A DNA stretch of 64,000 nucleotides from the NCBI RefSeq assembly GCF_030013595.1, contig NZ_CP122768.1. One strand, given 5' to 3'. The notes beneath the pieces were generated by a model that was not told the DNA's origin, did no database searches, and was given only the letters and a program-made list of their open reading frames with translations. Shown in pieces: positions 11-4,474 of this stretch. Every line of letters starts with the position of its first letter. Position 1 is the stretch's first letter. The stretch is from Escherichia coli (lineage in GTDB: Bacteria; Pseudomonadota; Gammaproteobacteria; Enterobacterales; Enterobacteriaceae). A program made the translations under genes and the position numbers.

Positions 11-36
11 AAATAAAAAAGGGCCACCAGCGGCCC
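11..36 (-). terminator. putative intrinsic terminator
   Basis: GGGCC/GGCCC inverted repeat at 21-36; the plus-strand A-run at 11-20 gives a U-tract for minus-strand transcripts. Confidence 0.4.
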
Positions 37-162
37 GTAAAAAACAACACCCCGTCAAAGGCACCCGCAGATACCTTTTGTGTGGTGTATTCAGATTTGA
101 CATACGCTGAGCAGGGCGAAGAAATGAAAAAGGCCCGCAGTAGCGAGCCATGAAGAAACTGA

Positions 163-190
163 ATAAAAAAAAACCGCCTGGTACGGCGGT
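163..190 (-). terminator. putative intrinsic terminator downstream of the tRNA array
   Basis: ACCGCC/GGCGGT hairpin at 173-190 preceded on the plus strand by A9, i.e. a U-tract on the minus strand. Confidence 0.55.
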
Positions 191-453
191 TAAGATGAAT
201 TTCCAGGTTTTGCTTAATACGTGATTAATCTCAACGTTTTTTATAGATGTTAACAACATCGGAATGATGCATCACCGGCCCTGTCAGGAAATACAACATC
301 TCCACCGATAATGCACCATTACGCTGTTGTAAAAAGACAGCACTGGGCTGTAACCGATATCACGTATTACAGAACAGGATGTGGATAAAGATTCAGGAAA
401 ACATCCCACATATAATATGTCAGTGCCCAAAACAACCTGGTATCGTCTACTGC

Positions 454-531: not shown

Positions 532-607
<76 letters not shown>

Positions 608-609
608 AC

Positions 610-686
610 TGGACCGCCACCGGGGACTCGAACCTCGCACACTCAACTTAAAGGGTTGACGCTCTTTCCCGATGAGCTAGTGGCGG
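610..686 (-). tRNA. atypical tRNA-like gene, apparent anticodon UUU (Lys) or degenerate Arg-like
   Basis: acceptor CCGCCAC/GTGGCGG, T-loop TTCGAGT and 3' CCA are present, but the anticodon loop is CCTTTAA (C at position 33) and the T-stem has one A-C mismatch. Confidence 0.5.
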
Positions 687-763: not shown

Positions 764-973
764 GGGCGCAGGATAATAACGTTACAAAATCAATGTTGCA
801 AGCATTCAAAAATCACCTGGTTAAAAATCACCCTTACTTCCTCCACCAGCGCATTCACCATGTCTATCCGAGATAAGTGGCACAAAAAAAACCACATTTG
901 GGCGGGTTTTGTTTGCTTTTGCCATCACGTACAAAATCGGCAAAATATCAGATTTGCATAAAATATATGCCTT

Positions 974-1669
974 TCAATCTACTTTTGCAACACTTTGCTT
1001 TGAAAATGCCGCCTTTTGTTTTGAACGCGTTCTCATTACAAACAATAAAGCCCCACTATCCAGTCGGTAAAAAATGTGTTTCATTGCAACCCAGTGACGA
1101 GTAAATGTTTTGGACCAGTTTTTAGTTGTCACTCCCGCCAGTAATGCCAGCTCCTGGTATTCATAACCTTCCCCACCAAAAAGTTCTGCTTTTACTGCCT
1201 GCGCCGCCAGCCAGATTAATTTTTTCAGGCGTTCCTGCGTTTTCCCTGCAATTTTTCTGGTACCGGATTGAGTATTAAATTCGTTCCACGCCCACTGTGT
1301 TATCGCGATCTGATGCTCCCAGCAAATGTTTCCGCCGTAACACCACAACAACCAGGCTTTATGATGCTCTTCAAGAGACAGCACAGCCCGCCGCCATGAT
1401 GATGTCGAAAACTCAACCGGGCTGACCAGGGCAATTGATGAGCCTTTCGCCAGTGATTGTTTTCCCGGGATTGGTGGATTATCCCGCGTTATCATTTTTC
1501 CAGTCACTTCATCGCGGTACCGGATTTTTTTACGCCTGTAACGCCCTGTATCAAACATGGCATTCTCCTGCCAGGCTTCAAGCTGACCTTTTGTTGCCCC
1601 ACTCAAATCAGCGGTGGCGATAATGAGCTGCTCGCGCACAAACTGTAAATACTGGTTATTCATGCGCAC
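974..1669 (-). CDS. putative late-gene antiterminator (Q-like), 231 aa
   Basis: ORF directly downstream of rusA and upstream of the tRNA/late leader, which is the Q position in lambdoid phages; called by position, no sequence match to lambda Q recognised. Confidence 0.5.
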   Translation of the reverse strand: MRMNNQYLQFVREQLIIATADLSGATKGQLEAWQENAMFDTGRYRRKKIRYRDEVTGKMITRDNPPIPGKQSLAKGSSIALVSPVEFSTSSWRRAVLSLEEHHKAWLLWCYGGNICWEHQIAITQWAWNEFNTQSGTRKIAGKTQERLKKLIWLAAQAVKAELFGGEGYEYQELALLAGVTTKNWSKTFTRHWVAMKHIFYRLDSGALLFVMRTRSKQKAAFSKQSVAKVD

Positions 1670-4108: not shown

Positions 4109-4264
4109 TTACTCCTCAGGTTCGTAAGCTGTGAAGACAGCGACCTCCGTCTGGCCGGTTCGGATTCGTACCTCGCAGAGGTCTTTCCTCGTTACCAGTG
4201 CCGTCACTATGACGGTTAAACAGATGACGATCAGGGCGATTAACATCGCCTTTTGCTGCTTCAT
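4109..4264 (-). CDS. hokD: Hok/Gef-family type I toxin (HokD/RelF-like), 51 aa
   Basis: hand translation gives MKQQKAMLIALIVICLTVIVTALVTRKDLCEVRIRTGQTEVAVFTAYEPEE; below the 60-aa cutoff of the ORF track. Confidence 0.85.
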   Translation of the reverse strand: MKQQKAMLIALIVICLTVIVTALVTRKDLCEVRIRTGQTEVAVFTAYEPEE

Positions 4265-4474
4265 AGCCTGCTTCTCCTTGACCTTTCGGTCCGTAAGAGG
4301 CTAATCTCTATGTGTCGCATAGATATGGCCTCAGATTAATGTTAAGCGTCTTGCAGGACGCGTAATGTTAACTGGGGCTTTTCTCTATCTGCCTTTTGGT
4401 GTTCATGCCTGAGGCAGATAGCCTCAAGCACCCGCAGCAATTCTACTTAACTCTCCTTTTCCCGCAAACCGTTT

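Follow-up and report, generated by a model that had tools for sequence, protein, structure and literature searches.

The closest described relatives of the gene analyzed here are the argN genes (anticodon UCG) in the ileZ-argN-argO tRNA cassettes of Stx phages and other lambdoid phages. A second set of related systems, currently an active and young field, comprises phage tRNAs that replace host tRNAs targeted by anti-phage nucleases, as described for T5 versus PARIS, retron-Eco7 and PrrC170 and for several phages versus P2 OLD. So far, tests have mainly concerned virulent phages that encode large sets of tRNAs. Lys(UUU), Thr(UGU), and Gly(UCC) have been published as targets of PARIS and P2 OLD, two defences that cleave tRNAs, and Thr(UGU) and Gly(UCC) are the top targets of the P2 OLD tRNase. 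Among the targets of anti-phage tRNases, tRNA-Lys(UUU) is the one documented best. PARIS AriB cuts tRNA-Lys(UUU) between C40 and A41; the exchange U39A abolishes cleavage, A41C and U16C impair it, and the tRNA-Lys of T5 escapes AriB and neutralises PARIS (PMC12409363, PMC11464382). PrrC cuts tRNA-Lys 3' of U33 (PMC2275089, PMC2610378) and, according to the AriB study, needs ct6A37. In the case of PrrC170, phages are rescued by a phage tRNA-Lys (PMC11555353). For the E. coli enzyme TsaBCDE, a U33C exchange in the substrate stops the synthesis of t6A37 (PMC8887486). The Thr tRNA of phage HK446 counters P2 OLD, whereas E. coli Thr(UGU) does not rescue phages from this nuclease.

The window, by which we mean the whole stretch of 64,000 nucleotides of E. 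coli DNA analyzed in this study, contains four adjacent tRNA genes on the minus strand, which ARAGORN called in the order CAU, Lys, Thr-UGU, and Gly-UCC with a spacing of 1–3 bases. The first gene of the cassette (688–763; Rfam score 72.5 bits) has the anticodon CAU, is ileZ-like, and is annotated as tRNA-Ile by PGAP. The gene at 610–686, called tRNA-Lys(ttt) by ARAGORN and referred to below as the Lys gene, is followed by a tRNA-Thr(UGU) gene (532–607; 73.8 bits) with the host-type nucleotides U36-A-A-U-C-A41 and by a tRNA-Gly(UCC) gene (454–528; 65.6 bits). These last two genes are copies of the host genes thrU and glyT without the intervening tyrU. The Thr gene is identical to that of the host, and the Gly gene of the window carries a compensatory exchange from C6-G67 to U6-A67; in most related cassettes this pair is still that of the host. 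An earlier reading made from the letters alone (the sequence-only reading) had taken these three neighbours for ordinary tRNAs, and the ARAGORN calls and covariance scores are in agreement with it.

An open reading frame of 231 amino acids (974–1669, minus strand), taken from the ORF list, matches the gene of antitermination protein Q in related prophages by annotation and blastn collinearity. The gene order Q, tRNAs, holin is annotated in the matching prophage of E. coli strain ETEC1730 and in phage PhiR47_1, and the lysis genes (holin and others in the matching prophages) fall just outside the window. Being located downstream of the Q frame and upstream of the lysis genes, the cassette falls within the Q-dependent late transcript. 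In addition, a promoter-like TTGCAA-17-TATTAT site (773–801, minus strand; 9 of 12 consensus matches in a consensus scan only, which returned 8 sites versus 3.0 expected) ends approximately 10 bases upstream of the CAU tRNA and may provide the cassette with a transcript of its own. Phage HK446 has Asn(GUU) and Thr(UGU) tRNAs at the same genomic position (L125, 35097–35252), where its RefSeq record contains no tRNA feature. It appears that, in lambdoid phages, tRNA sets of various composition generally land between Q and the lysis genes.

Several other features were observed in the surroundings of the cassette. The minus strand within window positions 21–191 has a tandem of three strong hairpins (191–172, 149–132, and 36–21) that resemble terminators and have long T runs. 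They follow the tRNA cassette at a distance of ~260–430 bases and precede the lysis genes. In a scan of 2.6 kb, 11 sites of this terminator-like kind were returned versus 3.0 expected. The prophage extends from window position 1 to ~16.5 kb, and its integrase adjoins the potC side. It carries a hok/sok-type toxin-antitoxin locus (4109–4433, minus strand), in which an Rfam sok match (4262–4433; 108.3 bits) is adjoined by an ORF of 51 amino acids (4109–4264) matching hokD of the ETEC1730 prophage. The latter prophage, which is related and not identical, has a serine/threonine kinase and PP2C phosphatase pair between hokD and the replication region (L367, 15654–17147) that may be an accessory or defence module. 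From ~16.56 kb onward the window consists of ordinary E. coli chromosome. This part is collinear with strain ETEC1730 between 16,557 and at least 40,895 and also holds, on the minus strand, the sRNA SraB (53564–53732) and, at 55593–55929, the 5' UTR element of RNase E.

The Lys gene (610–686, minus strand) reads CCGCCAC UA GCUC AUCGGGAAA GAGC G UCAAC CCUUUAA GUUGA GUGUG CGAGG UUCGAGU CCCCG GUGGCGG U CCA. Sequence and covariance-model alignment agree on a cloverleaf with stems of 7, 4, 5, and 5 bp and with anticodon and T loops of 7 nt each. All seven acceptor pairs, beginning with C1-G72, are perfect, the T loop is UUCGAGU, and the 3' end consists of U73 and an encoded CCA. The conserved U8, A14, G18G19, A21, and T-loop UUCRANY are all present, and the sole stem defect is the mismatch A51·C63 in the T stem (window 635/623). 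The Rfam tRNA model (RF00005) matched the gene over its full length (1–71) with 44.6 bits, above the curated gathering score of 29 bits that served as cut-off. The backbone pattern of the gene occurred once in the window and in none of 100 shuffles.

In the anticodon loop CCUUUAA (648–654, minus strand), C32 is located at window position 654, C33 at 653, U34-U36 at 652–650, A37 at 649, and A38 at 648, and the Rfam alignment sets the C at 653 opposite the consensus U33. A shifted register with the anticodon UUA was rejected, because the 5-bp stem UCAAC/GUUGA fixes the 7-nt loop. In thermodynamic folding, the minimum free energy structure (−28.0 kcal/mol) is not the cloverleaf (−25.5 kcal/mol). 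This is no argument against the loop as read here, since the minimum free energy folds of the ordinary CAU and Thr neighbours are likewise not cloverleaves, and this kind of folding was therefore dropped as a criterion for a tRNA. The features listed by the sequence-only reading, namely the 7-bp acceptor stem, T loop, CCA, C33, UUU, and T-stem mismatch, were all correct, and its reading of the loop withstood re-folding with the covariance model. It had also described an anticodon context unlike that of host tRNA-Lys. In an alignment, the body of the gene is unrelated to host lysT. Gene, cloverleaf, and genomic position are direct observations, and the stretch 610–686 is a genuine tRNA gene of a lambdoid prophage cassette.

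BLAST against phage genomes matched the stretch of the CAU, Lys, and Thr genes to the ileZ-argN-argO cassettes of Stx and other lambdoid phages at 84–88%. In a gene-by-gene alignment the Lys gene is a homologue of argN: its acceptor, D, and T arms are the same or almost so, including C1-G72, the T arm with A51·C63, U73, CCA, and a D loop that keeps A20. It also occupies the argN slot, directly after the ileZ-like CAU tRNA and between Q and the lysis/stx genes. Its anticodon is UUU instead of the arginine anticodon (UCG/UCU) of the argN type, and in sequence terms the gene is best regarded as a derivative of the argN family and not as an argN. The Rfam score of Stx argN itself is only 43.0 bits, so the low score and the T-stem mismatch of the Lys gene are inherited family traits and not signs of fresh decay. 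Hence, of the earlier suggestion that this might be a decaying argN-type gene, the affiliation was borne out by homology, slot, and alignment with ileZ-argN-argO. The decay was not, as far as the copy in the window is concerned: it scores like argN, inherited its mismatch, C1-G72, and U73, and belongs to a gene found in ~15% of the genomes searched, although some sister copies are degraded.

An unbiased sample of related cassettes, anchored only on the flanking CAU and Thr genes, comprised 122 arrays in IMG/VR. The middle gene was a Lys gene with the loop CCUUUAA in 108 of them and with UCUUUAA in two, an Arg(UCU) gene in five, and a singly mutated or degraded gene in seven. All five Arg(UCU) genes, among them those at L374, L375, and L376, have the same backbone, the anticodon stem UCAAC/GUUGA, U33, and a fully paired T stem; the closest Arg(UCU) relatives scored 53.5–55.6 bits. 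Between the Lys loop and the nearest Arg(UCU) loop (CUUCUAA) the only differences are C35U and U33C, both transitions, and relative to argN(UCG) the anticodon stem shows a compensatory exchange from G30-C40 to A30-U40. Among the sampled copies, position 33 is C in every UUU copy and U in every UCG or UCU copy. A version of this backbone combining U33 with UUU had no match in IMG/VR, compared to at least 120 matches of the C33 form. Ancestry and exact loop changes can be read directly from these alignments. The sequences indicate that two loop changes converted Arg(UCU) to Lys, with C35U creating the anticodon UUU and U33C replacing the near-universal U33.

A further lysine anticodon was found in seven of the 122 related cassettes (L368, L372, L384, L385, L388, L376, and L383), where the thrU-derived homologue of window 532–607 has the anticodon UUU and not UGU, the loop CUUUUAA, and in addition A26G (74.2 bits). 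The anticodon arm on this Thr body is almost identical to that of host tRNA-Lys. On sequence grounds we regard this gene as a second, independent switch to a lysine anticodon within the cassette, which suggests repeated selection for a phage-borne Lys tRNA. As a separate observation, the Yersinia phage YeP1 harbors an annotated "tRNA-Pseudo-TTG" (L004, 1725–1802) with acceptor, D, and T arms of the argN type and a scrambled anticodon arm, which is located before the CAU tRNA and not after it; here, too, the anticodon arm of an argN-type backbone changed and the remainder was kept.

The Lys gene was detected in 797 of 5,426 complete E. coli genomes (~15%), and ~600 contain the full array of four tRNAs. 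The argN-type Lys family was seen in E. coli strains and their phages, with the degenerate relative in phage YeP1, and the family pattern had no match in 100,044 species-representative genomes. It is already known from public records that the gene is a tRNA-Lys by annotation, as PGAP assigns this name to copies of ≥97% identity, including a gene identical to that of the window. Such an identical gene is present in strains ETEC1730 and UMNF18. Two types of variants are left unannotated by PGAP. One has a one-base deletion in the D stem, scores 28.2 bits and thus below 29, and is common in O157, O55, and O111 strains; the other carries C4U/U8C/C11U and scores 37.1 bits. A literature search on ileZ, argN, and argO returned nothing relevant, and as far as we could find, the origin by an anticodon switch on an Arg scaffold, the linked C33, and the predicted escape from PARIS and PrrC are undescribed.

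The anticodon of the Lys gene is that of the host tRNA targeted by PARIS AriB, PrrC, and PrrC170. By sequence comparison only, the gene has G39-U40-U41 and C16 at the AriB determinants, where the host tRNA has U39-C40-A41 and U16, and its C33 directly adjoins, on the 5' side, the bond 33|34 that PrrC and RloC cleave. Based on these features we tentatively propose, at a probability of roughly 45%, that the phage supplies a tRNA-Lys(UUU) that evades tRNA-Lys-cleaving defences. For this tRNA we infer expression, charging with lysine, decoding, modification state, and nuclease resistance as follows. Upon prophage induction, it would be transcribed together with its cassette neighbours and released by RNase P and 3' trimming, a route proposed because the genes are 1–3 bases apart and the CCA is encoded. 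LysRS would charge it through the anticodon UUU, and it would read AAA and AAG. The anticodon U34-U35-U36, which is present in the gene, is the main LysRS identity set. The value to the phage would lie in the difference from host tRNA-Lys, as translation could continue when the host tRNA-Lys is destroyed. AriB would be evaded by means of the Arg-type body, which lacks the needed U39-C40-A41 and U16, and C33 would act at the bond cut by PrrC/RloC and as an anti-determinant for the E. coli t6A37 enzyme. With the AriB determinants absent and C33 present, the tRNA should survive the cleavage of host tRNA-Lys. Going by the published U33C data, t6A37 is probably absent from it.

Several features count against such an evasion. 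C33 removes the canonical U-turn uridine. The loss of t6A37, a modification that matters especially for the reading of AAA and AAG by tRNA-Lys(UUU), should weaken the decoding of these codons. The A73 and Lys-type body of a Lys isoacceptor were not found, since the gene has U73 (G73 in some copies) and no similarity to lysT, and U73 together with the retained A20 may compromise its lysine identity. Because the Thr and Gly genes are identical or nearly identical to those of the host, and E. coli Thr(UGU) does not rescue phages from OLD, codon supply fits the cassette as a whole better than nuclease evasion does. Moreover, many sister copies of the Lys gene look damaged.

This damage leads to the main rival explanation, according to which the gene is a relic or near-pseudogene: a redundant Arg tRNA gained C35U and U33C, became barely functional, and persists because selection acts on the other genes of its cassette (CAU/Ile2, Thr, Gly, Arg) and because the cassette spread recently. 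The evidence on constraint is mixed, and we consider this explanation less likely than the proposed evasion, though a serious rival to it. With 44.6 bits the Lys gene has the lowest covariance score in the array (65.6–73.8 bits for its neighbours), and it combines C33 with a T-stem mismatch, while the closest Arg(UCU) relatives in the same slot have U33, a paired T stem, and higher scores; on the other side, the copy in the window scores the same as argN. In PPompW-type arrays the next gene is argO(UCU), which would have made a middle Arg(UCU) gene redundant. Nucleotide diversity (pi) within the cassette is 0.0015–0.036 versus ~0.3 in the highly mosaic flanks. When the CAU, Lys, and Thr genes are compared, variability peaks in the Lys gene (pi = 0.033, compared to 0.005 for CAU and 0.014 for Thr), as expected for a relic, but its diversity is still approximately tenfold below that of the flanks and equal to that of the Gly gene.

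Roughly a quarter of the copies carry further suspicious changes, including U8C in ~27 of 122, the one-base D-stem deletion that falls below the score threshold, and three badly degraded copies. These common damaged variants, the variant types left unannotated by PGAP, and the degenerate anticodon arm in YeP1 would all suit a gene in decay. In contrast, none of the frequent polymorphisms in the stems breaks a pair (C-G to U·G at 2-71, 4-69, and 11-24, and U4-A69 in L374), and loop positions 33–38 are invariant among ~130 Lys-type copies while positions 31, 32, and 42 vary. Copies with different T stems (C63/U63), discriminators (U73/G73), and acceptor and D-stem variants all retain the loop CCUUUAA, in arrays that continue with argO as well as in those that continue with Thr-Gly. 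A covariation test on 23 distinct members of this young family gave 94.8% paired cells and two double changes, which is not above shuffles. This result and the conservation of C33 carry little statistical weight because the divergence within the family is very low. The second, independent UUU switch in the cassette and the occurrence of C33 in many otherwise canonical phage tRNAs also speak against a mere relic.

The distribution of C33 was assessed by scanning IMG/VR for CCUUUAA loops, with the argN-type Lys family excluded (L126–L245), and for the corresponding Thr tRNAs (L247–L366). At least 65 ARAGORN-confirmed C33 tRNA-Lys(UUU) genes, representing at least 52 distinct sequences, occur on unrelated backbones, and at least 100 C33 Thr(UGU) genes (100 of the 120 matches listed) represent at least 87 distinct sequences. 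Among ~1,500 other, unselected tRNAs in the contigs of the matches listed, position 33 is C in 69 and a purine in ~5. This ratio indicates that C is a specifically tolerated alternative at this position and not noise, and that it is compatible with real tRNAs. The frequency of C33 among these other tRNAs is ~4–6%, across many anticodons. A tighter C33 Lys pattern gave 31 matches in IMG/VR (a complete count) and 22 matches in the 100,044 species-representative genomes (298 Gb; L396–L417), of which 16 are true C33 Lys genes, mostly in dense phage-like tRNA arrays of metagenome-assembled genomes. Thus, many phage tRNAs that are unrelated to one another have C33, and cellular genomes almost entirely lack it. 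A literature search found no description of C33 in phage tRNAs.

Specificity of C33 for Lys was rejected, as C33 Thr(UGU) tRNAs are at least as common among the matches listed, and so was t6A avoidance as a general explanation of C33, which among the other tRNAs of these contigs is found in ~4.8% of the t6A-class (ANN-decoding) tRNAs and in ~4.5% of the others. A further-reaching version of the proposed evasion holds that C33 is a recurrent phage adaptation that yields "stealth" tRNAs, in which t6A37 synthesis by TsaBCDE would be blocked and the base at the PrrC/RloC scissile bond altered while decoding is kept, and which would be coupled here to the Arg-to-Lys switch on a PARIS-evading scaffold. 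We regard this as unlikely.

The gene might also be an extra tRNA-Lys for the late genes of the phage, with no link to defence and with C33 as a neutral, tolerated quirk. Compared to chromosomal genes, the codons AUA, ACA, GGA, AGA, and CGA are enriched 1.2- to 6.7-fold in a related prophage, which classically explains why a phage has tRNAs for Ile2, Thr(UGU), Gly(UCC), and Arg and leaves Lys as the odd one out. Lys codons are somewhat enriched as well (AAA+AAG 5.7–6.0% versus 3.9%, ~1.5-fold; AAG 2- to 2.4-fold). A plain supply function would agree with this bias, with the rare-codon fit of the remaining cassette, with Thr and Gly genes that are host copies and not resistant variants, and with a C33 tolerated at ~4–6% over many anticodons with no excess in the t6A class. 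However, an additional Lys tRNA should matter little in E. coli, which already has six tRNA-Lys(UUU) genes and uses AAA commonly, and a C33 tRNA that is hypomodified would be ill suited to raising capacity; we therefore consider plain supply improbable.

The least probable alternatives, which we hold to be very unlikely, are a decoy that binds and titrates an anticodon nuclease such as PrrC and stays uncut owing to C33, for which the position of C33 exactly 5' of the PrrC/RloC scissile bond and the possible competition by overexpressed viral tRNAs raised by the authors of the AriB study could be cited although in the case of OLD the viral tRNA supplemented the pool and did not inhibit the nuclease, and a C33-shifted turn that presents U35-U36-A37 and reads UAA, for which one could cite the genuine UUA suppressor tRNAs that ARAGORN detects in phage contigs, although these have another stem register, the 5-bp stem and 7-nt loop of the Lys gene are unambiguous, and C33 Thr tRNAs shifted in this way would present GUA (Tyr), with no sense common to the two cases.

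If the proposed evasion of tRNA-Lys-cleaving defences is true, the idea of counter-defence tRNAs would then also cover a cassette of temperate phages that is very common, occurring in ~15% of complete E. coli genomes. Such an evasion would, moreover, reveal another route to a resistant tRNA, in which the anticodon of an unrelated body is re-aimed instead of a Lys tRNA being mutated. Should C33 in addition have the stealth role outlined above, the lysine tRNA would be a purpose-built anti-defence device in a prophage cassette that is common in E. coli. The Lys gene offers a natural test case for C33 in a bacterial elongator tRNA with regard to t6A loss, PrrC cleavage, and decoding. If it is inert, it would be a clean example of anticodon drift and decay in a mobile tRNA cassette and a caution for the automatic naming of tRNA-Lys genes.

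Among the known systems, E. coli tRNA-Lys(UUU) (lysT family) has the anticodon UUU and the loop bases C32 and U34-A38 in common with the Lys gene. It shows no homology in the body, has another D loop, and carries U33, A73, and A31-U39 where the Lys gene has C33, U73, and C31-G39. The best-known natural class of functional C33 tRNAs is the eukaryotic initiator tRNA-Met; it belongs to multicellular eukaryotes and is unrelated to the Lys gene in sequence and role, and C33 substrates are rejected by the t6A enzymes of both E. coli and yeast.

The tRNA-Lys(UUU) of T5 is, like the Lys gene, phage-encoded and has the same anticodon, and it has been shown experimentally to suppress PARIS (the tRNA-Lys of the T5-like phage SP15 does so for PrrC170). 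At the AriB positions 39–41, T5 has A-C-C, the Lys gene G-U-U, and the host U-C-A, and position 16 is C in both phage tRNAs. The T5 tRNA has a Lys-type body, a normal CUUUUAA loop with U33, and A73, and belongs to a virulent phage with ~24 tRNAs, whereas the Lys gene has an Arg-type body, C33, and U73 and belongs to a temperate phage that encodes four; in the case of T5, both resistance and rescue were demonstrated, and they would apply here by analogy.

The closest system is argN. The Lys gene shares with it the lineage, the slot after the CAU tRNA and downstream of Q, the acceptor with C1-G72, the T arm with A51·C63, U73, CCA, the D loop with A20, and the covariance score (43.0 bits for argN and 44.6 bits for the Lys gene). 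It differs from argN by the anticodon UUU instead of UCG/UCU, by C33 instead of U33, and by an anticodon stem with A30-U40 and U27-A43 where argN has G30-C40 and U27·G43. In addition, the Lys gene of the window is followed by the host-derived Thr and Gly genes, whereas argN is followed by argO.
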